Source: Candidatus Zixiibacteriota bacterium (GTDB lineage: Bacteria > Desulfobacterota > Binatia > UBA9968). From it: a stretch of DNA of 64,000 nucleotides. The translations under genes and the position numbers were made by a program. The stretch lies in assembly GCA_035574315.1 (NCBI GenBank), contig DATLYW010000031.1, positions 68,574 through 132,573 of the forward strand, written 5' to 3'. Below are positions 1 through 26,314 of the stretch, in pieces. Numbering within the stretch: the stretch's first letter is position 1; the number at the start of each line of letters is the position of its first letter. The notes under the pieces are model-generated. The model made no database searches, was not told the origin of the DNA, and worked only from the letters and a program-made list of their open reading frames with translations.

Positions 1-426
1 CCGCGAGCTCCGTTGCCCCGCAGAAGGGCGGCGCAACCGCACCGAGCCCAGCTTCCCGACGGCCGCTTTCGCCGGGAGGTTTTCCGCTGCCCTCATTGGG
101 GTTTGCCCCCGGCTGAGGGACCAGCGGAATCAACAGGAGCAAGCCCGCGAAGACGGCGCTTTGCTGCGCGCTTTCACCGGTCGGGAAAACGGCTCCGCTT
201 TTATCTGCGCCGCTCGGAACCCCCGTTACGTGATCGATGAGGACCATGCCGGCACGCCGGGAGAGCAAGAGGGGTGCCAGGCACTGACCCGCCGCCCCGT
301 TTCATCGGCGGAACGCGGCGATTCTTTAGTTTTTCTTTGCGACAACCGCGAGGTGGCAGTCGAAGTCGCATGCCACGAAGACTCCCATGCGACGGAGAAA
401 ATTCCCGGAGGGGGAAAGGGTTGCAT

Positions 427-6869: not shown

Positions 6870-6882
<13 letters not shown>
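6454..6882 (-). CDS. flgB: Flagellar basal-body rod protein FlgB; internal ATG of the longer ORF
   Basis: FlgB motif [18 protein letters not shown] and C-terminal [10 protein letters not shown]. Start MAGLRLFS chosen because the upstream part of the ORF overlaps the response-regulator gene. Confidence 0.8.
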
Positions 6883-8232
<1,350 letters not shown>

Positions 8233-8258
<26 letters not shown>

Positions 8259-9492
8259 CGCTTCGCGTCTCCTCGGCCGCAGGCAGGCAGACGTTGAACT
8301 GGCTGCCGCGTCCGGGCGTCGACAGAACTTCGATCGAGCCGTGGTGCGCGTGGACGATCTTGTGCGTCAGCGCCAGGCCAAGCCCGGTCCCGTTCTTTTT
8401 CGTGGTGAAGAACGGGTCGAAGATCCGCTCCCGGTTCTCCGGTGGAATGCCGCCGCCTTCGTCGATGACCTTGATCTCGACGGCCCGGTGGATCCGCCCG
8501 TTCATCGTGGCGAAAGGCGCCATTTCCGCTTTGAGTTGCACCCGCCCGCCCGCGGGCATCGCTTCCTTGGCGTTGACCACGAGGTTGAGCAGCGCCTGAA
8601 CCAGCAAACCGCGGTCGCCCCAGATCGGCGGCAGGCCGGGCTGAATGGCGAACGCGAGCGACCACGGCGGATCATTGAACAGCGGTACGCATTCCACGAG
8701 CAGGTCTTTCATCAGCAAAGGCACCGGCAGGAGATCGGGGGAGATCGACGGCTCCGCGGCGAAGCACAGCAGGCGCGAGAGCGTGGCGTGCAGCCGGCGC
8801 GCGGCCGCGAGGATCTCCTCGGCCGCCCGCCGCGGGTCCTCGACCGCATTTTCCTTGAGCAGCGATGCGTAGAGCTCGATCCCGCCGAGGGGATTTCGCA
8901 CCTGGTGCGCGAGCTCCGACGCCATCAGGCCTAGCGAAGCCAGCCGGCGCGTCCGCGCGGCCTCCGCTTCGAGGCGCTTCAGCGTGGTGGTGTCCTGGAA
9001 AATCACGACGTAGTCGCTGCGGGAGCCTCCCGCCGCCACCTCCGAGACCACGAAGTGGAGCGGCCTCACGATCCCGTCGGGTCCCTGAATCATCTTCTCG
9101 CATTCCAGAGGGAGAAAGCTCCTGTCGCCGCGCCGGAGCCTGGCGGCCAGTGTTTTTCCCAGCAGCTGCCCGGCGCGCTCCGCGTCGATTTCCCCCGCCA
9201 GCTCGTTCAAGCGCCGATTGGCGAACGTCGGCTGCAGATCGCGACCGAGGATGAGGACCCCGGCGTTGAGGCTTTCGAGCACCGAGAGGAGATACGCCCG
9301 GGCTTCTTCCCGTTCCCGCAGGCTCTTTTCGAGCTCGCGGTGCTGGCTTTCGAGCTCGCGCGTCAGGTGCTGAGCGCGCTCCTCGAGCCTGCGGTATTCC
9401 CGAATCAACTCCAGGCTGTTCTGATTGAACCAGCCGATGAGATGCTGGAGCGACTCGACCTCGATCTCCGGTTCGCTGACCGCAATAGTCAT
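8233..9492 (-). CDS. Cytoplasmic PAS sensor histidine kinase, FlrB/FleS-like
   Basis: H-box [15 protein letters not shown]1/G2 boxes ([23 protein letters not shown]), no TM segment. ATG at 9492 preceded by GGAGG. Confidence 0.8.
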
Positions 9493-9589
9493 TCCTTGCC
9501 TCCGTTCCCGCGCGGCGGACGCGTCGGCTTCTGCCCCGAGCAAGCTCCGTGCCACGGTTTTCACCGAGGGCACGAGAGTTACTCGGCTC

Positions 9590-10705
9590 TCAGGCGCATC
9601 CTCGCGTCTGCCCGTGAGCCGCGGCCACGGGCGGTGTCAAAGAAAAGTACCGCTCCGTCAGGATCCCGACGCCGCCGCCCGCGGGCGCCAGGCGCGGCTG
9701 CAGCATGCCCTTCTTGCGCAGGCGCTCGATCAACGTGGTGCGATTCAAACGGAGCAGCTCGGCGGCGGCGGTCTTGTTGCCGCGGCTGCGCTCGAGCGCC
9801 TGACGAATGAAGCCGTTTTCGATACTTTCGAGGACGCCGTCGAGGTCCACGCCCTCGTCGGGAAGCGATACCTCGGCGGCCGCCGCGCTCCGCCGCGCCG
9901 CCGGCTGGAGCACGTAGTCGGGCAGCTCGCCCACCCGGATCACCCCGTCCTCGTTCAGGACCACGAGCCGCTCGATGAGATTCTCCAGCTCGCGCACGTT
10001 TCCCGCCCATTCGTAGCTTTCGAGGGCCTGCATCGCCGCGGGATCGATCTCGAGAGGCCCTTTGCCCTTGCGCCGCCCGTGAAGCGAAAGGAAATGGCGG
10101 ACGAGAAGCGGGATGTCGCCCCTGCGCTCGCGCAGCGGCGGAAGCTCCAGCGGAAGCACGTTCAGACGATAGAAGAGATCCTCGCGAAACTTCCCTTCAC
10201 GAACCGCCGCCCGCAGGTCCCGGTTGGTTGCCGCGACGACCCGGACGTCAACCTGCACCGGATGGTCGCTTCCGAGCGGCTCGAACCGTCGCTCCTGCAG
10301 CACGCGCAGCAACTTCACCTGCAGCTTCGGGCTCATCTCGCCGATCTCGTCGAGGAACAAAGTCCCCCTGTGGGCGAGCTGGAAGCGGCCTTGCCGGGCG
10401 TGAATCGCGCCGGTGAACGCGCCGCGCACGTGGCCGAACAGCTCGCTTTCGAGCAGCTCCTCGGGAATGGCCCCGCAGTTGACCGGAACGAACGAGCTGT
10501 CGCGTCGATGGCTGAACTGGTGGATTGCACGGGCGGCAAGCTCCTTGCCGGTCCCGCTTTCACCGGTGATCAGGACCGTGGCGTCGCTTTGCGCCATCTT
10601 TCTGACGAGCTCCTGGATCCGACGCATGGCAAAGCTCTCCCCGACCATCGCCGCAAACGCTTCGCTGCCCCTTTCCTGCGCCGCTCCGAGAACCCGATTG
10701 TCCAT
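9590..10705 (-). CDS. Sigma-54 enhancer-binding protein lacking a receiver/sensor domain (AAA+ plus HTH only)
   Basis: Walker [23 protein letters not shown]-terminal HTH. Only ~15 aa precede the AAA+ domain. ATG at 10705 with GGGAGG SD; the annotated M at 10720 is a TTG. Confidence 0.8.
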   Translation of the reverse strand: MDNRVLGAAQERGSEAFAAMVGESFAMRRIQELVRKMAQSDATVLITGESGTGKELAARAIHQFSHRRDSSFVPVNCGAIPEELLESELFGHVRGAFTGAIHARQGRFQLAHRGTLFLDEIGEMSPKLQVKLLRVLQERRFEPLGSDHPVQVDVRVVAATNRDLRAAVREGKFREDLFYRLNVLPLELPPLRERRGDIPLLVRHFLSLHGRRKGKGPLEIDPAAMQALESYEWAGNVRELENLIERLVVLNEDGVIRVGELPDYVLQPAARRSAAAAEVSLPDEGVDLDGVLESIENGFIRQALERSRGNKTAAAELLRLNRTTLIERLRKKGMLQPRLAPAGGGVGILTERYFSLTPPVAAAHGQTRGCA

Positions 10706-11028
10706 TCGACCTCCCGTCAAAGCCTTGTCGCGTCAGAAAAACGTTGGCCTTGCCGCCGAGCAAAACAGAGGCCAGCAGGAACGAAGCCGCCGCCGCCGCG
10801 CCTAAGTTGCCGACATTTTCGCTGAAAGCTTCGCCCCGCGGCGTGCCGCAACGCCGATCGTGCGGTGGCAAAAATTCGACGCTTACCCGGGCGGCGTCGA
10901 GAAATTGTCGCCGGAGCGCGGCACGCAACAAAGCCTACGGAATAGGCCGCGGCCGCTGCGCCGGCGCGAAAAAAGCGCGGGCCGGGCGGCTGCTTCGCGG
11001 CAGGATCAGGGGCGGGCGGCGGGAGGGA

Positions 11029-11745
11029 TCACTCCTCGCCGTTGACCTTTTCGAGATATTGTCTCATCGCCTTGCGGCGAACGCGAATCGTTCTTTTTTC
11101 CACCTTGAGAATCCCTTTTGCGCGAAGGTCGCGCAGGCTGCGGGAAAGCGTTTCCGGGGCGGTCGAAACGGCCTGGGCGAGCTCCTTGTTGGAAAGCGGG
11201 ATCTCCACGACCTCTTCCTCCGAGCCGGCGCGGTCCAACAAGTTCACGAGATGCTCGAGCAACAGCGCCACCCGTTGCTCGACCGGCAGCCTTGCCATCC
11301 CGACGCGCCGGTAGAGGCGAAACAGATTCTCCGAGAAATGGCGCGCGAGCTGGAGAGCGAGCGCGGGATGGCGCTCGCCGAGCAGCCGGAGCTGACGCCA
11401 GCCCATCCGTCCGATCTCGACCTGTCCCCCGGTGGTGACCGCGGCACAGGGATGGCTCGCCGCGGCGCCGTCACTGACGCCGCTGATGATGCTGCAGGGG
11501 ACCGCTAGGTCCACGATCGCTTCCTCCCCTCCAGGCACAACCGTCGTCAATTTCACGACGCCGCGGCAAATGAGATAGACTCCGGTGACCGGCTCGCCCT
11601 GATGGAAGATGAACTTTCCCCTGCCGGCCACCGAGTAGCGGGCGAGCCCATCCGAAAATTCCTTGCAGGCTTTTTCCCCCACTCCCTTCAGGAACCCCTC
11701 CTCCCGGTGCGGGCAGTCGAGGCAGGTTTTCTGCATGCCGGACAT
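11029..11745 (-). CDS. Crp/Fnr-family transcriptional regulator, FNR-like (N-terminal Cys cluster; E--SR recognition helix)
   Basis: cNMP-binding fold plus C-terminal HTH containing ETLSRSLRDL (FNR-type E..SR). N-terminal C-x2-C...C residues at positions 8, 11 and 27. Confidence 0.8.
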   Translation of the reverse strand: MSGMQKTCLDCPHREEGFLKGVGEKACKEFSDGLARYSVAGRGKFIFHQGEPVTGVYLICRGVVKLTTVVPGGEEAIVDLAVPCSIISGVSDGAAASHPCAAVTTGGQVEIGRMGWRQLRLLGERHPALALQLARHFSENLFRLYRRVGMARLPVEQRVALLLEHLVNLLDRAGSEEEVVEIPLSNKELAQAVSTAPETLSRSLRDLRAKGILKVEKRTIRVRRKAMRQYLEKVNGEE

Positions 11746-11789
11746 TGTCGCGCCAATAAATTAAATAGCCTACTTTATAGTGAAAAGTC

Positions 11790-11803
11790 TTGACGTAAAT
11801 CAA
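11790..11803. promoter_or_regulatory. FNR/CRP-type palindrome TTGAC-GTAA-ATCAA
   Basis: Read directly. Matches the FNR consensus TTGAT-N4-ATCAA at 8/10 bases, i.e. at every position outside the T5/A10 pair. Sits in the AT-rich divergent region between the fnr-like gene and the sigma-54 activator gene. Confidence 0.55.
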
Positions 11804-11811
11804 TGGTAATT

Positions 11812-11825
11812 TTGACTCGGATCAA
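11812..11825. promoter_or_regulatory. Second FNR/CRP-type palindrome TTGAC-TCGG-ATCAA, 22 bp centre-to-centre from the first
   Basis: Read directly. Two helical turns from the first box. Confidence 0.55.
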
Positions 11826-11955
11826 TGCAGGAGTTTGGAGACAGTTGTATGGTGGAAGAAAAACAACTCCCTCGATTTCGCCAACGAGGGCTCAGCAAGT
11901 CAGGAATTCGGCCTCGACGAAGCTTGGCTGACGCATAACCGGCTTCACCGCTCAA

Positions 11956-12960
11956 ATGGCACCGACTCACCCCGTTTCGATCATCGGCGAGCATCCGCTC
12001 ATGGTAAAGATCAAGGCTCTGGTCGACCGAGTTGCGGCTACGGACGCAACAGTGCTCGTAACCGGAGAAAGCGGGACCGGGAAAGAGATCGTCGCCCGCG
12101 CGCTCCATGCCTCCAGCGCCCGCAATCACGGGCCGTTCGTTCCCGTAAACTGTGCCGCGATCCCGCACGACCTGCTCGAAAGCGAGCTGTTCGGCCACGT
12201 GCGCGGCGCGTTCACCGGCGCGCTCGGCGCCCGCGCCGGCATGTTCCAGCTGGCCGACGGCGGCACGCTTTTCCTCGACGAGGTCGGGGAAATGCCGCTC
12301 GCGCTTCAGGCCAAGCTCCTCCGGGTTCTCCAGGAGCGTGAGGTCCGCCCGATCGGCGCCGACCAGAGCGTCCCGGTCGACGTCCGCGTGATCGCGGCGA
12401 CGAACAAGGACCTGGTGCGCGAAGTCGAAAAAGGGACCTTCCGCGAGGATCTCTTTTACCGCCTCCAGGTGATTCCGATTCACCTGCCGCCGCTGCGGGC
12501 CCGCCGCTCGGACATTCCGCTGATGATCGATTTCTTCCTCGAGCGGGCGAACCGCCGGCACAACAGCTCGGTTCGCATTGCGCCCGAGGTGGGCATTCAT
12601 CTATGGGAGTACGACTGGCCGGGAAACGTGCGCGAGCTGGAAAACGTGATCGAGCGGATGGTGCTCCTGTGCGAGGGGGGGCGGATCGAGATGCAGGACC
12701 TTCCTCCCAACATTTACAACTTCGTCTCCGACAAGAAGATTCCGCAGCCGACCCTCAACGGCAAAGAGCTGGACCTGCGGACCGCGCTCAAGCAGTTCGA
12801 GTACCGGCTCATCGACGAAGCCCTGCGCCTCACCGACGGGAACAAAGCCATGGCCGCGCGCATGCTCAAGGTCAAGCGAACCACGCTGCTCGCCAAACTG
12901 CGAAACCGAGACTTGAGGAGGGACGAGGTTGAGAACAAGCGACTTCCCCTTGCCAGCTAG
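11956..12960 (+). CDS. Sigma-54 enhancer-binding protein, AAA+ plus HTH only (no receiver or sensor)
   Basis: Starts directly in the AAA+ domain. Walker [15 protein letters not shown], arginine finger region, C-terminal HTH ([10 protein letters not shown]). Confidence 0.85.
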
Positions 12961-13399
12961 CCGGTCCTCCGGGTCGAGGATCCTGGTGGTCGACGACAAC
13001 AAGGACCTGGTGGAGTTTCTCCGTCGCCTGCTCTCACACCACGGATTCGACGTGCGCTGCGCGTTCAGCGGCGCCGAATGCCTGGAAGCCGTACGGCGCG
13101 AGCCCGTCGACCTGATCGTTCTCGACGTGATGATGCCGAAGACCGACGGCCTCCAGGTGTGTGCCGAGCTCAAGCGCACCGCGCCTTCGATTCCCGTGAT
13201 GCTCCTTACCGCGAGGGACGACCTTGCCACCCGAGCCGCCGCCATGTCGCTCGGAGCGAGCGAGTTCGTCGCCAAGCCGATCAACGTTGCGGATTTCCTC
13301 GCGCGCGTGGGAACCCAACTGGAGATGCGCGGCTGGCAGAAGACCATCGACGCCGCTTTTGCCAGAACGAAAGGAGACGACACGCCCGCGGGGAAATGA
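12929..13399 (+). CDS. Stand-alone CheY-like receiver domain protein (TTG start inferred; alternative GTG at 12986)
   Basis: ILVVDDN...LIVLDVMMP...LLTARDD...FVAKP: all phospho-acceptor pocket residues present. Overlaps the stop of the upstream activator gene by ~30 nt. GGAGG lies 8 nt upstream of the TTG. Confidence 0.7.
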
Positions 13400-13571
13400 A
13401 GCCACGCCCGAGCCGGAAGGCCGCCTCGTCCCCGCAAGCGCTCGGCGGAGCCCCAAAAGACCCTTTTCCTCGTCTGCCTGTGCCGTCCCCGGATGGCAAA
13501 AAACGGCGCGAGGGTTTGCCCGCGGGCGGGCGAGCTTCGCGTTAAAATTCCCTGCTTATCACCGGTTTTCT

Positions 13572-13588
13572 TTGGCACCATCTTTGCT
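13572..13588 (+). promoter_or_regulatory. Sigma-54 (-24/-12) promoter TTGGCAC-CATCT-TTGCT
   Basis: Exact TGGCAC-N5-TTGC with GG-N10-GC spacing. Lies 75 bp upstream of the 67-aa ORF and 170 bp downstream of the activator/REC pair. Confidence 0.6.
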
Positions 13589-13664
13589 GCCTTCATAGGC
13601 TTAGCACTAATGAGATGCGTGCCGCGGGAATTGTCCGAGTACCGTTTGGCAGGCAGAGAAAAAA

Positions 13665-13868
13665 ATGAACCCGCAGAAAATCAGGCTCCTCGAAGAGCAA
13701 TACCGGCGGGCTGCCAGGGAGCTTTACGAGCACGAGGGAATGCTCGAGATCGACGACCAGGCCGCGGTCACGCTGCCCGACGGCGAGGGCAGCTACGGCG
13801 CTTACGTGCAGGCCTGGGTATGGGTCGGCAGCGAGGAGGCAAAGCGGCACCGCCCGACGGGTTCGTAG
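13665..13868 (+). CDS. Small hypothetical protein (67 aa), likely sigma-54 dependent
   Basis: High GC3 codon usage typical of the window; ATG preceded by AGAGAAAAAA; no recognisable domain. Confidence 0.45.
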   Translation: MNPQKIRLLEEQYRRAARELYEHEGMLEIDDQAAVTLPDGEGSYGAYVQAWVWVGSEEAKRHRPTGS

Positions 13869-13960
13869 CCTTCTCCCTCAAATTACTGGCCGGTTCGTCG
13901 TTTTCCCGCTTTTCCCTCCCTGCTTTACGGTTTGAAACGTTAGTCGACCGCGGTCGAAAC

Positions 13961-14485
13961 TCAGATTTCGGCCCGGCGGCTGTGCATGGCGAGCGCCATG
14001 TCGTGGACCACCGAGACGTCGAATGAGTCCGTGGTGGTGGCTGAATTGGTACGGTAGCGAACGGAGATCGTGGGCCCCAGCCACGAGATCGTGAAGCTTC
14101 GAGCCTGCTTTTCCTCCAGATAACTCCCGAGCGCGCGAAGCATTTGCGAGACGGCGCCCTGGGCGGCGTGCGGAGTGCCGCGTCGCGAACGCCCCTCGGA
14201 ATCGAGCCGTTCGATATCCGTGGGGGTGTAGCGCAGCTCTTGCATGGACCGGGGCAACCCGTGCTCGAGAACCGGCGCAGGCGTTTCGCCCCAAATTTCC
14301 TCGACGAGCCTCGCGAGGAATTCTTTCGACGGCGACCTCTCCGATCCCGGATCGCGAGGCTGATAACGCACGACGTACTCGTTGCCGCGCTGCTTGAGCT
14401 CGAAGCTCTCGGTGCCGCTCAACGCCTCCAGGGCCTGACCCAGGGCTCTGAGCGCTCTGGAATGTTTAAGATTCGACGCAGCCAT
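13961..14485 (-). CDS. Hypothetical protein (174 aa) with internal tandem duplication
   Basis: Good codon usage. Two repeats of helix LRALG..LE followed by SF....G...V.RY (residues ~10-50 and ~110-150). No known domain recognised. Confidence 0.5.
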   Translation of the reverse strand: MAASNLKHSRALRALGQALEALSGTESFELKQRGNEYVVRYQPRDPGSERSPSKEFLARLVEEIWGETPAPVLEHGLPRSMQELRYTPTDIERLDSEGRSRRGTPHAAQGAVSQMLRALGSYLEEKQARSFTISWLGPTISVRYRTNSATTTDSFDVSVVHDMALAMHSRRAEI

Positions 14486-15512: not shown

Positions 15513-16475
15513 ATGATCACCGCAAGCGAGCTGAACGGGGTATTGGCGATGATGCCGGCTTTCGCCACACCGGATGCTGTGGACATTCGGGCTACGCAAA
15601 CCATCGCCGTCGACAACCTGAAGGAAGCGGTCGATAAGATCATCAAGGACGGGGTCCACAACATCGCCACCACGGGGACCTACGGCGAGTGCTACAACCT
15701 GCTGTTCGACGAGTTCAGGGTGCTGGCCGCGGCGACGACGGAAGCAGTCAACAAGCGAGTCCCGCTGTTCATCGGCTGCACCAGCCCCAATCCGAGGGAA
15801 GTCGTCCAGAAGATGAACTTCGTCAAGGATCTCGGAGCGGACGGCGTGCTCCTCGGCGTACCTTACTACGAGACGCTGCCGGTGGCGGATGCGATCCGCT
15901 TCTACCACGACATCGCGGACCTCTTCCCCACTCTTGCAATCGTGATCTACCACAACCCCGAGAATCACAAGTTCACCATTCCGGTCGCAGCCTTCAAAGA
16001 ACTGGTCAAAAAACCGAACATCGTGGGGATGAAGGACAGCCACCGGACGACGCAGGCTTTCATGAGCCTGCAAAAGATCATCAAGGGGAAGATCAGCGTC
16101 TTCGTGAACCAGACGCAGCTCTATCCTTACTATCAGTTGGGAGCTGCGGGCTGCTGGTCCACCGAGGTGTGGATGGGCCCGTGGCCGGTGCTCTACCTGC
16201 TCGACGTCGTGCGGCGGGGAGACGTTCAGAAGGCGATCGAGGTCATCGACGATCTGATCGGCGACGGGAGCGGCGGCCGGCCGGTCCCGGGAGCCGGAAA
16301 CAAGCGCCCGGCCGAGTTCGCCGATTACTGCAAGGTCGGCCCGACGCGCGTTCCGTTTCTCAATTTTCCGGAAGCGGAGCTGGCCAAGGCGAAACGGCGG
16401 GCCGAGCACTGGATGAGGCTCAATGCCAAGTACCGGCCGCTCGTGGAGGCGGCGCGCGCCCGAACCGCCGCCTGA
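15513..16475 (+). CDS. Dihydrodipicolinate synthase / N-acetylneuraminate lyase family (DapA-like) class I aldolase
   Basis: TIM-barrel DHDPS-family features (GTTGE, MKDS, conserved Lys region); GGAGG SD. Confidence 0.7.
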   Translation: MITASELNGVLAMMPAFATPDAVDIRATQTIAVDNLKEAVDKIIKDGVHNIATTGTYGECYNLLFDEFRVLAAATTEAVNKRVPLFIGCTSPNPREVVQKMNFVKDLGADGVLLGVPYYETLPVADAIRFYHDIADLFPTLAIVIYHNPENHKFTIPVAAFKELVKKPNIVGMKDSHRTTQAFMSLQKIIKGKISVFVNQTQLYPYYQLGAAGCWSTEVWMGPWPVLYLLDVVRRGDVQKAIEVIDDLIGDGSGGRPVPGAGNKRPAEFADYCKVGPTRVPFLNFPEAELAKAKRRAEHWMRLNAKYRPLVEAARARTAA

Positions 16476-16633
16476 AGCTCGGCTGCGTTTGGAGGAGGCG
16501 GGCACGGCCCGCTGCCCGGCCGCCGTCAAGAAACGCGGCGGGAAGCTCAACGCCCTTTTTGGAGGTTACGGGAAATCTTCTCCCGCGCTCTGGGTCGCGC
16601 GCGTGTTTTCGCCGTTCTCCAGAGAAACGGCGC

Positions 16634-16662
16634 TTGCCAAAAAAGAGCGTGCGCTCTATTAT
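16634..16662 (+). promoter_or_regulatory. Sigma-70-like promoter TTGCCA-N17-TATTAT, with overlapping 8-bp inverted repeat GTGCGCTC/GAGCGCAC (16649-16656 / 16671-16678)
   Basis: Read directly. The -10 ends 18 nt before the HEPN ATG; GGAG SD follows. Confidence 0.45.
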
Positions 16663-16679
16663 CACCGACGGAGCGCACC

Positions 16680-17072
16680 ATGGGATTCTATGCTGACGTC
16701 TGGCTGCGCCAGGCCCGTGACGGCGTGGCGGCGGAGCAATCCGACTTCGAGAAAATCGCCGAGGCGGTCGAAAAAGCGATCAAGGCGGCGCTGTTGGAAA
16801 ACCACGGAAGCATCCCGAAGAAACACGACCACGACAAGCTGGTGACGCTCTGCCAGTCGACCGGCGTGTGGGACGTCTTACCGCCGGCGCTCAAGAACCT
16901 TGTCCAGGAGGTCGAATCGTACAAGCTCTCGGCGCAGCAAGGATCGACCGCACCCGTTTCCGCCCCGCAGGACCTCGCCAGGTATTTCTCGATCGCCCGC
17001 CGGCTGATCGACTACATGGAATACCACGTCATCGGCAACGACTCGGTTCTGAAAAGGCTTACGGTCGGCTGA
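16680..17072 (+). CDS. HEPN domain protein (solitary)
   Basis: All-alpha ~130 aa. N-terminal AxxxFxKIAEAVEKAIKAAL and KHDHDKL region, plus C-terminal R-x(6)-H (RRLIDYMEYH), typical of HEPN. Confidence 0.55.
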   Translation: MGFYADVWLRQARDGVAAEQSDFEKIAEAVEKAIKAALLENHGSIPKKHDHDKLVTLCQSTGVWDVLPPALKNLVQEVESYKLSAQQGSTAPVSAPQDLARYFSIARRLIDYMEYHVIGNDSVLKRLTVG

Positions 17073-17247: not shown

Positions 17248-18111
17248 TCAGTTGACCGGCAGAAGCGACTCGACCGTGGCGATCTCGAGGGCGTCGTGGT
17301 TGCCGCTTTTCATCCGGGTCATGCGACTTTCCGCCTCGTTCATCAGCTCTGCCACGCTCCGCGGAGCCTTGGCACAGGCGATGGCGCTGATGAAAAAAGT
17401 GACGGGCTGAGCGTATCGGCGCCGCTCTTCCCGCAGAGCGCCCTGCATCTTTTCGAGAACGAAGCGAGCCCCTTCCGGTTCGGTGTTCGGCAGCAGCACC
17501 GCGAACGCCGTGCCCCCGATTCGCCCCACCAGGTCGGCCCGCGGAGCGTTCTTTCGTATCGTGTGGGCGATCGCGCAGAGCATCTGATCGCCGGTGACGT
17601 AGCCGAAACGGTGATTGATCCATTTGAAGCCTTCCACGTCGATGTAGGCGAGCGCGATGGGCTCGAGCCCGAACGCCCGGTCCATTTCGCGCGCCGCAAG
17701 CTCGTAAAAGGCGCGGCCGTTCGGCAACCCCGTGAGAAAATCGCGACTGGCGAGCTCGGAGATCTGGTCAAGCTTGGACCTGAGCTGCGACAGAGCGACC
17801 GCGACGGTCAGCAGAATCCCGGCGCGCATCAGAAAATTCCAAATCTCGATCAAGGAGGAAGAGTAGGAACGCTCCCCGACCTTGCCGACCACGGTCCAGA
17901 CGACGGCGCAGGCCAGCGCCATGCCGATTGCCGCCCGGCTCTCCACGAACCAGCTCACCAGCGCGATCGGGAGGAGATAAAAAAAATGGATGTGCGGCTC
18001 CCGGCCGGTCATGAAATCGAGCGCCCCCACCGTGGCCATCAGAAGGATTCCAAGCGCGAGGTTCGTGGCCTTGGTTCGACGCTCCAGAAATCTGAGAACT
18101 GTTTCCATCAT
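17248..18111 (-). CDS. Membrane-anchored GGDEF-domain protein with degenerate active site (GGTAF)
   Basis: 4-5 N-terminal TM helices. DFLTGLPNGRAF and DVEGFKWINHRFGYVTGDQ motifs present, but RIGGTAF replaces RxGG(D/E)EF. Confidence 0.8.
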   Translation of the reverse strand: MMETVLRFLERRTKATNLALGILLMATVGALDFMTGREPHIHFFYLLPIALVSWFVESRAAIGMALACAVVWTVVGKVGERSYSSSLIEIWNFLMRAGILLTVAVALSQLRSKLDQISELASRDFLTGLPNGRAFYELAAREMDRAFGLEPIALAYIDVEGFKWINHRFGYVTGDQMLCAIAHTIRKNAPRADLVGRIGGTAFAVLLPNTEPEGARFVLEKMQGALREERRRYAQPVTFFISAIACAKAPRSVAELMNEAESRMTRMKSGNHDALEIATVESLLPVN

Positions 18112-18595
18112 CGCCTTGCCGCACCGCGCCGAGCTTTGCGCGTTTCATCCCGGGACCCGGGGGAGCGATGCCTGGCCGACCTGCCCCGATCCGGCCGCAC
18201 AAGCCGGGATGCCGAAGCTTACGGCTGCTTTCCTCGCGTTTTCGGCTGAAGCTAAACTTTTGTCGGGGAAGTTTCAACCGCGCCAGGCCGGCGGAGCACC
18301 CGAGCCAGGGGCGAAAAAAAACGAGTGAGGACACCTGCGAGCACGGCGACGGCACACACGAAGCTCACCCCGCCGATCCACGGCACGAGCCGCGGAGCCC
18401 GACAGGCTCGAGGCGGGACATCGGGTTTGAGAATCTTTCGGTAAGAAGAACGTTGCTTCACAGTTGGGACGGTTGCAGTTCTCGTGCCAGCCACAGCAGA
18501 AAACGAAATGGGCTGAATTGACGCAATCTCGACGGTGCTGCCGGACCGCGCTCAAGCTACGGCCGCGACATCCGTGTCAAATCGACGCGCCCGGT

Positions 18596-24271: not shown

Positions 24272-26314
24272 TTACTGCGGCTCTTCGGTTTCGCCGTGAC
24301 CGTGCCCCTTGGTATTGAGCATGCCGTATTTCTCCAGGCGGTGGCGGAGGGATCGATAATTGATGCCCAGAATCTCGGCAGCGCGCTTCTGCACCCCGTT
24401 GGCCCGTTTGAGGGCGCCCAAAAGGATGCATTTTTCGTGGGTTTCGAGCTCAGCGTCGAGAGAAAGCCCCTTGCTGAAGAAAAGATCGGCGCCGCCGGGC
24501 GCGGTTTTCTCGAAAAGCTCCGCTTCTTCGGCAATCGGGGTTCCCTTGACGTGCGCGGGAAGGTCGTCCTCCGTGAGCGCCGCAGAGGTCGCGACCGCGA
24601 CCGCATGCTCCATGATGTTCTCCAGCTCGCGCACGTTTCCCGGGTAGGAATAATTCACCAGATGCATCAGCGCGCCGCTCGAGATCTCCTCGATCTTCTT
24701 CTGCTGCAGCTCGGTGAACTTGCGGAAGAAATAGTGCACGAGCGCCGGGATGTCCTCCTTGCGGTTTCGAAGCGGAGGCATCGTGATCTGCACGACGTTC
24801 AGCCGATAGAAAAGATCCTCGCGAAAACGCCCCTCCTCCATCTCCCTTCTCAGGTCCTTGTTGGTCGCCGAGATCACGCGGACGTCGACCTTGACCGGCT
24901 TGTTACCCCCCACCGGCGTGAAGGTCCTGTCCTGGAGCACACGCAGTAGCTTGACCTGGAGATGAAGCGGCAGCTCGCCCACCTCGTCGAGAAAAATCGT
25001 TCCCTGATCTGCCTGCTTGAACAGACCGGGATGATCGGCAACCGCCCCGGTGAACGCCCCTCGGACATGGCCGAAGAGCTCGCTCTCGATCAGATTCTCG
25101 GGAATCGCGCCGCAGTTGACGGCGACGAACGGCTTGTTCTTCCGCGGCCCGTTGAGGTGGATGGCGCGCGCGACGAGCTCCTTGCCGGTGCCGCTTTCCC
25201 CGATGATCAGGACGTTAGTGCTGCTCGAAGCGACCTTTTGCACCAGCTGGTTGATCTTTTCGATTCCGGGGCTCCTGCCGATCACTCCTTCGAAGTGGAA
25301 CTCGCCCGGTCCCCGGGCCTCCTGCTCCTTCGCCTTGCGCAGCTCCTCTTCGAGCCGGAGCTTCTCCTCCATTTCTTTCTGTTTGGTGATGTCGTCGAAG
25401 ATCGAAAGATAGCCGATCAACTGCTGCCCGGCGTCGCTGAGGGGAGCGAGCGTCAGGCGCAGCTGCTTCTGCGCCCCCTGCGCCGTCGCGAACGAGATCT
25501 CGTCGGCGACCACGCGTGGCCCGCTCTTCGATCCGTCGAAGCGATACGAGAGTCCGGGGAAAATCTCGTCGAGTCGCTTTCCACGGACCGTTTCCTCGGC
25601 CAGTCCGGTCAGGTTCTGCGCTTGCACGTTGAAATAGTTGACGCGACCGCCAACGTCCGTGATGGCGATTCCGCTGCCGACTCCCTGGAGCAGCGCCTGC
25701 TTCAACGCGTCGAGCTCCTGATAATCGAGCTGCTTCGCCTTGAGCGCCTTTTCCGTCTCGGCGAGCTTCTTCGCCAAAAACCCGCCGAGGCCCGCGATCG
25801 CGAAGAAACTTCCCGCGTTGAAGACGTGAGGCATCACCGCGGCCCACGAGGCGGGCACGCCTGCGCCGCGGTGCAACGTGTAGGCCCAGCTGAGCAGCGC
25901 CACGTAACAGAGGCTCGAGAAGATCGCCGTGAAAAACGCCCCGCGGTAAAAGAGCAGGATGGCGCCGTTCATGACCGCCAGGTTGTAGAGGAACGGAAAC
26001 GGGCTCGCGAAATCCCCCGTGATCCAGATGATGCCGGTGATGAGCAGGACGTCGAAATCGACCTGCAGGTGGGCGAAGAAGCGCAGATCCTTGATCCGCG
26101 GCAGGGCGAGGGCCGAGATCACGGAAATCGCGTACGCGAGGATCAGCGGAACCGAGAGCGTGTAGAGAAACCGGAGATCGCTTTGCTGGTTGAAGAAATG
26201 GAACAGCGCCGTGGCGCCGAGAAAAAAAGAGACGATGACCACTCGGAGAAAGAGCAGCCATCGCATCTTTTCGGTCAAATCCTTGCGCTCGTCAATCACT
26301 TTGCGACCGCCCAC
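24272..26314 (-). CDS. Membrane-bound sigma-54 activator: PilS-like 6-TM domain + PAS + AAA+ (GAFTGA) + HTH. Start is GTG at 26314 or ATG at 26266
   Basis: Six N-terminal TM helices, PAS region, Walker [16 protein letters not shown]-terminal HTH. No HisKA/HATPase and no receiver. Confidence 0.8.
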   Translation of the reverse strand: MGGRKVIDERKDLTEKMRWLLFLRVVIVSFFLGATALFHFFNQQSDLRFLYTLSVPLILAYAISVISALALPRIKDLRFFAHLQVDFDVLLITGIIWITGDFASPFPFLYNLAVMNGAILLFYRGAFFTAIFSSLCYVALLSWAYTLHRGAGVPASWAAVMPHVFNAGSFFAIAGLGGFLAKKLAETEKALKAKQLDYQELDALKQALLQGVGSGIAITDVGGRVNYFNVQAQNLTGLAEETVRGKRLDEIFPGLSYRFDGSKSGPRVVADEISFATAQGAQKQLRLTLAPLSDAGQQLIGYLSIFDDITKQKEMEEKLRLEEELRKAKEQEARGPGEFHFEGVIGRSPGIEKINQLVQKVASSSTNVLIIGESGTGKELVARAIHLNGPRKNKPFVAVNCGAIPENLIESELFGHVRGAFTGAVADHPGLFKQADQGTIFLDEVGELPLHLQVKLLRVLQDRTFTPVGGNKPVKVDVRVISATNKDLRREMEEGRFREDLFYRLNVVQITMPPLRNRKEDIPALVHYFFRKFTELQQKKIEEISSGALMHLVNYSYPGNVRELENIMEHAVAVATSAALTEDDLPAHVKGTPIAEEAELFEKTAPGGADLFFSKGLSLDAELETHEKCILLGALKRANGVQKRAAEILGINYRSLRHRLEKYGMLNTKGHGHGETEEPQ

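Follow-up and report, generated by a model that had tools for sequence, protein, structure and literature searches.

The stretch analysed here (hereafter the window) covers 64,000 nt of contig DATLYW010000031.1 (positions 68,574 to 132,573; assembly GCA_035574315.1, Candidatus Zixiibacteriota bacterium) and contains, at 11956-13399, two genes that form a real and widely conserved operon. The first encodes bEBP1, a sigma-54 activator (bacterial enhancer-binding protein, bEBP) that lacks an N-terminal regulatory domain. The second encodes REC, a stand-alone receiver. The best explanation of the whole, which we regard as possible and just short of probable, is that the pair comprises a top-tier flagellar sigma-54 activator and its detached, phospho-switchable regulator. 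The genes and their junction are as follows.

11956..12960, plus strand: bEBP1, sigma-54 activator with AAA+ and Fis-type helix-turn-helix (HTH) domains, 334 aa (Pfam and translation)
12929..13399, plus strand: REC, stand-alone receiver of PleD/OmpR type, 156 aa (Pfam Response_reg)
12914..12960, plus strand: gene junction, with a Shine-Dalgarno sequence GAGGAGGG at 12914-12921, the TTG start of REC at 12929, and the activator stop TAG at 12958-12960 (sequence)

A sigma-54 activator without a regulatory domain

Pfam analysis placed a Sigma54_activat domain (PF00158; E 3.9e-73) at residues 9-176 of bEBP1, together with a match to AAA_lid_14, and a Fis-type HTH (HTH_8, PF02954; E 5.6e-9) at residues 278-316. 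The translation contains Walker A (GESGTGKE, residues 37-44), GAFTGA (84-89), and the Walker B DE (108-109). By its domains bEBP1 is a sigma-54 enhancer-binding protein, and promoter activation is its predicted activity. The AAA+ domain begins at residue 9, and no N-terminal regulatory domain was found by Pfam, which agrees with an initial annotation of this DNA as encoding an AAA+/HTH protein without one. The open reading frame (ORF) starts at the first start codon past an in-frame stop, and the spacer between bEBP1 and the divergent Crp/Fnr gene is 210 nt. This stop and spacer leave no space upstream in which a degraded N-terminal domain could lie hidden. Among bEBP1 orthologues, 0-46 residues precede the AAA+ domain.

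The best matches of bEBP1 among solved structures were FleQ (299 bits), FlrA (270 bits), and PspF (204 bits), and on these scores the activator is nearest to FleQ/FlrA. Similarity to FleQ is limited to the AAA+ part, with residues 8-277 of bEBP1 aligned to residues 147-415 of FleQ, and the receiver-like N-terminal domain of the FleQ/FlrA type is not present in bEBP1 by Pfam. Scores fell under the PspF equivalog cut-offs (262 vs 443.55 bits for TIGR02974 and 233 vs 529 for NF008622), and TIGR01818 (NtrC) gave 341 bits against a cut-off of 558.6. The best 120 homologues of bEBP1 were 305-397 aa in length and receiver-less, with the exception of P0056 (477 aa), which was rejected as a fusion of the two proteins since it is a mis-fused gene call. 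The NCBI protein P0001, from a metagenome-assembled genome (MAG) labelled Zixibacteria, is 100% identical to bEBP1 of the window. The exact bEBP1 sequence had no match when looked up among encoding contigs, and homologue loci were used instead.

A complete receiver encoded at the activator stop

The sole Pfam match of REC was Response_reg (PF00072, residues 18-127, E 3.1e-30). Its set of acidic pair (D22 and D23), phospho-acceptor (D66), Thr (T94), and Lys (K116) is complete, as had been read from the sequence at the outset, and these five catalytic residues are invariant across 30 orthologues. REC carries no winged-helix DNA-binding domain, and the chain stops ~29 residues past the receiver domain. 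All of the best 120 REC homologues were receiver-only. The C-terminal tail (window residues ~131-140) shows a conserved Trp after helix 5 (e.g. RGWQK, RQWDE, and LEWNK), confined to orthologues outside the Binataceae clade. This residue could form a partner-binding motif.

The REC gene had been described as overlapping the activator stop, and it does so by 32 nt. In L001, L002, L004, and L005, loci with activators of ~70% identity, ATG replaces the TTG of the window and the overlap is also 32 nt. In other clades 12-28 nt lie between the activator and REC, which has its own start codon, and in some of them this gap carries the ribosome-binding site of REC. The spacing of the two genes is always between -32 and +28 nt. 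A sigma-70 promoter scan of window positions 11600-14000 found none.

The public annotation of REC (P0121) is 137 aa long, starting from an internal GTG at 12986 with the first beta strand cut. We favour the 156-aa form because homologues are 148-162 aa and the upstream ATG/TTG with its ribosome-binding site is conserved.

Conservation of the pair

Conservation was surveyed in both directions. In the forward survey, the activator served as query with one genome per species, and ORFs and domains were analysed for each locus. A REC-only gene lay directly 3' of the activator in all 26 judgeable loci at >=56% activator identity (L001-L029). The loci not judged were L020 and L023, which end at the gene, and L003, whose contig is a palindromic artefact in which part of the operon is repeated in inverted orientation; L003 was rejected as a counter-example for that reason. 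Activator matches at <=53% identity were ordinary activators, mostly one-chain REC-AAA-HTH proteins, or other short forms (e.g. in Nitrospina), and a downstream receiver was found beside none of them.

The reverse survey covered 20 metagenome loci at >=46% REC identity, and a receiver-less activator lay immediately upstream in 19 of them. REC homologues from the protein search gave the same arrangement, as all three directly follow a receiver-less activator of 346-350 aa. REC matches below 42% identity were unrelated response regulators. These counts answer the question raised by the initial annotation, in that the receiver is conserved beside the activator.

The labels of lineages with the pair include Binataceae/Binatia, "uncultured delta proteobacterium", Alphaproteobacteria, and Zixibacteria. 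The source MAG is itself labelled Zixibacteria, yet for both genes the nearest relatives were found in MAGs of Binatia or "delta proteobacterium" (P0001, P0034). As the closest relatives of both genes lie elsewhere, the taxonomic label or binning of this MAG may be unreliable.

Origin of the two genes

The initial annotation had named the arrangement an "inverted split NtrC", which would make it an NtrC-type regulator broken up by gene fission or rearrangement, the receiver of which had ended up downstream. Its domain content of REC, AAA+, and HTH does match NtrC. However, REC scores far higher to receivers of the PleD/OmpR family than to those of the NtrC family. Against solved structures it gave 102 bits to PleD REC1 and 87 bits to both YycF and PhoP, compared with 55 bits to NtrC and 54 to NtrX. 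In NCBIfam, OmpR scored 99.6 vs 73-75 for NtrC/AtoC. By eye, the alpha4-beta5-alpha5 region (18 letters, then ....DFLARV) also resembles what we take to be the OmpR/PhoB pattern. Canonical activators in L030-L084 carry in-chain receivers, to which REC scored only 30-75 bits. The close homologues of the activator form a whole clade without a receiver, and no fused intermediates were found when the two proteins were used as one end-to-end query.

This joined query should rank a true fusion first, and it gave only P0241 (478 aa) and the mis-fused P0056. P0241 was rejected as a fusion, since it continues past the activator into half of a receiver and then falls out of frame. Together, the REC subfamily, the receiver-less clade, and the lack of fusions point to an old, stable two-gene module and not to a recently broken NtrC. 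We therefore regard a split NtrC as highly improbable, and on these comparisons the label is wrong. The read-through of P0241 into a receiver is also the observation that would favour an artefact, in which a frameshift or mis-assembly has divided one gene. Against this, P0241 loses its frame midway through the receiver, and more than 45 independent loci retain two genes, each with its own start codon and in some clades with a gap and ribosome-binding site between them. The likelihood of an artefact is practically negligible. The initial annotation had named a wrong junction with one fused gene as a possible flaw, and this was not borne out, as relatives keep the junction as two genes.

Promoters and flagellar regulators beside the pair

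The initial annotation did not include the flagellar context of the pair, a second receiver-less activator, or a conserved sigma-54 promoter with upstream boxes. These features lie on the other side of bEBP1 from REC.

10759..10774, minus strand: sigma-54 type -24/-12 element TGGCCTCTGTTTTGCT, ahead of bEBP2 (sequence)
10867..10880, minus strand: proximal AT-rich box GTCGAATTTTTGCC, 106 nt upstream of -24, candidate bEBP1 enhancer (sequence)
10896..10909, minus strand: distal AT-rich box GACAATTTCTCGAC, 135 nt upstream of -24, candidate enhancer (sequence)
9590..10720, minus strand: bEBP2, second activator without a regulatory domain (Pfam; likely ATG 10705 behind GGAGG)
9540..9554, minus strand: perfect sigma-54 promoter TGGCACGGAGCTTGC, ahead of the kinase-regulator operon (sequence)
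8233..9573, minus strand: histidine kinase in FlrB/FleS-like position (HisKA and HATPase_c; likely ATG 9492)
6870..8258, minus strand: canonical REC-AAA+-HTH activator in FlrC/FleR-like position (Pfam)
11029..11745, minus strand: Crp/Fnr-family gene (Crp/Fnr domains)
11790..11825, plus strand: pair of FNR/CRP-like boxes (TTGACgtaaATCAA, TTGACtcggATCAA) in the spacer from the Crp/Fnr gene to bEBP1 (direct repeat)

In pairwise comparison bEBP2 is 53% identical to bEBP1, and their HTH recognition helices differ (KRTTLVAKLR in bEBP1 and NRTTLIERLR in bEBP2). The genes flgC, fliE, fliF, and fliG come after the canonical regulator at 6870-8258 in the window. We take this row to mirror FlrA-FlrB-FlrC of Vibrio and FleQ-FleS-FleR of Pseudomonas, and the regulator row is shared by L002, L005, and L009. 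The kinase qualifies an earlier statement that no kinase gene is adjacent to the pair. This holds in the narrow sense, but a HisKA/HATPase kinase gene lies at a distance of 2.4 kb and has a partner of its own, the NtrC-type canonical activator that follows it. The Crp/Fnr gene appears to have been inserted, splitting the divergent activators, because it is found in the window only and is absent from all related loci. The boxes between it and bEBP1 have the form TTGAC-N4-ATCAA, lie 22 nt apart, and presumably match the FNR consensus.

The gene divergent from the pair is a bEBP2 orthologue in 11 loci, the window included, and a FliA-type sigma factor (Sigma70 regions 2, 3, and 4) in 6 others. 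FlgM anti-sigma genes follow fliA in L097, where Pfam identified two, and in L007, where one was found by Pfam and a second was read from sequence. A -24/-12 element is present ahead of the bEBP2 orthologue in each of the 11 loci and ahead of fliA in 5 of 6; for fliA of L102 none was found at <=1 mismatch. Among the bEBP2 orthologues, the element is perfect in L002, L005, L009, L093, and L105 and has one mismatch in L001, L085, L086, and L088.

An AT-rich box of the pattern G-Y-Y-A-H-T-T-T-Y-T-Y-D-M-C (e.g. GTTAATTTTTTGCC) is common to the bEBP2 and fliA promoters. Over the 17 loci, a sigma-54 promoter ahead of the divergent gene was counted in 15, and in 14 of these 15 the box starts 101-107 nt upstream of TGGCAC; an equally good match occurs at a random position with a frequency of <=0.005 per locus. 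A second box is located at 134-136 nt ahead of bEBP2 (L001, L005, L085, L086, and L088) and at 181-192 nt ahead of fliA. The exact pattern matched 20 times in 169 fetched loci (2.77 Mb, both strands), and for 16 of these matches such a promoter followed at a distance of 104-106, 134-136, or 190 nt. Within the window, the AT-rich core patterns searched for adjoin a sigma-54 promoter only at 10880-10867 and 10909-10896.

The sole gene set common to the bEBP2-type and fliA-type loci is bEBP1 with REC. Because of this, and because the recognition helices of the two activators differ, we infer that the boxes are enhancer sites of bEBP1, making them candidate binding sites of this protein. The shared promoter architecture provides good support for a cis link between the pair and the flagellar regulators.

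Proposed mechanism and its alternatives

From the promoter arrangement we infer that the divergent sigma-54 promoter is activated by bEBP1, which would place this protein at the head of the flagellar cascade. By analogy with other activators, REC would contact bEBP1. The two proteins would be made in step, in the window lineage via the 32-nt overlap of their genes. bEBP1 would bind the AT-rich boxes ~105 and ~135 nt upstream of the sigma-54 promoter and turn on the next flagellar regulator, which would be bEBP2 in the window and fliA-flgM in other lineages. From the bEBP2 tier, the cascade would continue through its own sigma-54 promoter to the FlrB/FlrC-like pair and then to flgC, fliE, fliF, and fliG.

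REC would be the detached regulatory module of bEBP1. A kinase encoded elsewhere would phosphorylate D66, and REC would bind or release the AAA+ ring in trans, gating its assembly or its ATPase. PspF is constitutively active without PspA, and on this analogy REC would most simply be a phospho-switched inhibitor; it could instead act as a co-activator. Control by the binding of a protein in trans is described for activators without a regulatory domain (PMC7175178 Table 1), and FleN acts in trans on the AAA+ domain of FleQ (PMC8528422). The suggestion in the initial annotation that REC regulates in trans or serves as a phosphate sink is plausible. A broader reading joins three parts: REC as a phosphorylation-switched anti-activator or co-activator in trans, a four-tier cascade (bEBP1/REC, bEBP2 or FliA, the FlrBC-like pair, and structural genes), and a module spread over Binatota-like and other uncultured soil and sediment lineages. 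As a joint proposal it is tentative and clearly short of probable.

Several observations weigh against the flagellar and regulatory roles proposed here. In the window itself, the -24/-12 element TGGCCTCTGTTTTGCT and the proximal box each carry two mismatches. The box pattern was drawn by eye from these sites, which makes its detection partly circular; the fixed spacing of the boxes and their rarity elsewhere are independent of that circularity. The Binataceae loci (L010-L029) keep the pair without an adjacent flagellar regulator, a box, or a clear sigma-54 promoter. Flagella are encoded in Binatales genomes (PMC8262859), and for this reason the target of bEBP1 in Binataceae may simply lie elsewhere in the genome. 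No kinase is conserved next to the pair in the related loci examined, and no cognate kinase was identified. The joined-query search returned no genuine natural AAA-HTH-REC fusion. Finally, the exception in the reverse survey, L103, has a REC orthologue without the activator, with a different receiver upstream and an integrase fragment near.

The lack of a fusion in the databases searched and the lone REC of L103 would both fit a REC that is co-expressed with bEBP1 and not its direct regulator, which is the main rival to a role of REC in trans. bEBP1 would then be intrinsically active and set by its own transcription (e.g. by Crp/Fnr at the FNR-like boxes), and REC would work elsewhere, as a phosphate sink or shuttle (e.g. 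for the FlrB-like kinase) or on another target. The ordinary PleD/OmpR type of REC, the FNR-like boxes upstream of the operon, and the kinase 2.4 kb off in the same regulatory cluster are consistent with such a role. However, that kinase is missing from most related loci. Adjacency of the pair is near-perfect in both directions while every other neighbour changes, and the coupled translation start is hard to account for by co-regulation alone. We judge co-expression without direct regulation unlikely, both for bEBP1 and for REC. A separate objection concerns the promoters, since the boxes and divergent promoters may not be targets of bEBP1. They could reflect autoregulation by bEBP2, another activator, or bending or IHF-type sites, with the bEBP1 regulon elsewhere, for example at a perfect sigma-54 promoter at 13573-13587. 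The Binataceae loci without boxes would fit this, as would the position of that promoter and a conserved 67-aa gene, 174 nt after the REC stop. Yet the same box occurs at the same spacing ahead of fliA in loci without an adjacent bEBP2, and the promoter at 13573 and its 67-aa gene are not kept beside the pair in related loci. This alternative is improbable in both its parts.

Other features of the window and related loci

13573..13587, plus strand: perfect sigma-54 promoter TGGCACCATCTTTGC, 174 nt past the REC stop (sequence)
13665..13868, plus strand: 67-aa ORF after the 13573 promoter, with coding-like G+C content at third codon positions (GC3 0.85) (ORF)

The family of the 67-aa ORF is widespread, with 738 cluster representatives at E <= 1e-3, sometimes in tandem repeats, and has no Pfam match. 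The 13573 promoter and this gene were not conserved beside the pair in any related locus. A sigma-54 promoter downstream of REC was accordingly rejected as a conserved target, as none is kept in relatives and the 13573 site is lineage-specific.

Further sigma-54-type features occur in the window. A perfect promoter is found at its left edge (265-279, minus strand), pointing outward. Another, with one mismatch, is located at 18475-18489 (minus strand), ~360 nt upstream of a GGDEF-domain gene (17248-18111, minus strand). The gene at 24272-26314 (minus strand) encodes 680 aa with a PilS-type six-helix membrane domain, PAS, a sigma-54 AAA+ domain, and HTH. With these domains, its product would be a one-component activator anchored in the membrane and working without a kinase or a receiver.

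Genes following the pair vary. Only in the window (15513-17072) and in L001 (7784-9402) do genes of the DHDPS family (84% identical) and with a HEPN domain (61%) come after it. In 16 Binataceae loci (within L010-L029), a DUF4870 membrane protein of 122-159 aa is encoded directly after REC on the same strand, ~620 nt past the activator stop, and is followed by a convergent MscS-like channel gene. The Binataceae neighbours UvrD, peroxiredoxin, PTPS, DUF4870, and MscS gave no functional lead.

Comparison with known systems

In sigma-54 activators the switch is usually a domain of the activator's own chain, and the few without one (PspF, HrpR/S) are switched by dedicated partners. If the proposed role of REC is true, contact between proteins would here be all that links two-component signalling to an AAA+ activator, and this would offer a simple system for studying the gating of AAA+ ring assembly by receivers. 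The flagellar hierarchy of abundant uncultured soil bacteria would also gain an extra phosphorylation-controlled tier at its top. The boxes and promoter predicted here make the proposal directly testable in a heterologous host.

Individual elements of the arrangement have counterparts in characterized systems. PspF and PspA of the E. coli phage shock response ("group 4", PMC7175178 Table 1) likewise combine an AAA+/HTH activator that has no regulatory domain with a separate regulator in trans. Here, the candidate partner is instead a phosphorylatable receiver, its gene is directly downstream and translationally coupled, and there are no psp genes. HrpR/HrpS and HrpV of Pseudomonas syringae resemble the window in having two paralogues side by side, both of them activators that lack a regulatory domain, and a small protein regulator, with a regulator gene behind a sigma-54 promoter downstream (hrpL there, bEBP2 or fliA here). 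However, hrpR and hrpS are in tandem and form one hetero-hexamer, whereas the paralogues here are divergent, 53% identical, and one is apparently downstream of the other. In addition, the small partner in the place of HrpV is REC, and many loci have no bEBP2.

The system of FleQ/FlrA with FleN (Pseudomonas and Vibrio) is similar in structure, FleQ being the best solved-structure match of bEBP1, and the locus likewise stands ahead of an FlrA-FlrB-FlrC-like row and flagellar genes. FleQ and FlrA carry an in-chain N-terminal receiver-like domain that is not known to be phosphorylated. bEBP1, in contrast, has no N-terminal domain, and a bona fide receiver is encoded separately. NtrC, DctD, and NtrC1 (group 1) share the three domain types, and there the receiver gates AAA+ assembly; these are single REC-AAA-HTH chains, whereas REC is a protein on its own and belongs to another receiver subfamily. 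FgrM of Geobacter is a flagellar master activator of the sigma-54 class under a His-Asp phosphorelay, with its receiver in the same chain. Control of an AAA+ machine by a free receiver is known from Caulobacter, where CpdR, a single-domain response regulator, binds ClpX directly in trans and controls it according to the phosphorylation state of CpdR. ClpX, however, is a protease unfoldase and not a transcription activator, and the two systems are unrelated in sequence.

The proposed action of REC would parallel that of PspA on PspF, HrpV on HrpS, and FleN on FleQ, with the difference that phosphorylation would do the switching. The literature searched gave no precedent for the pairing of a sigma-54 activator that lacks a receiver with a stand-alone one. 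We rate the pair as a variant of trans-regulated activators such as PspF and HrpRS, joined to the flagellar sigma-54 hierarchies.

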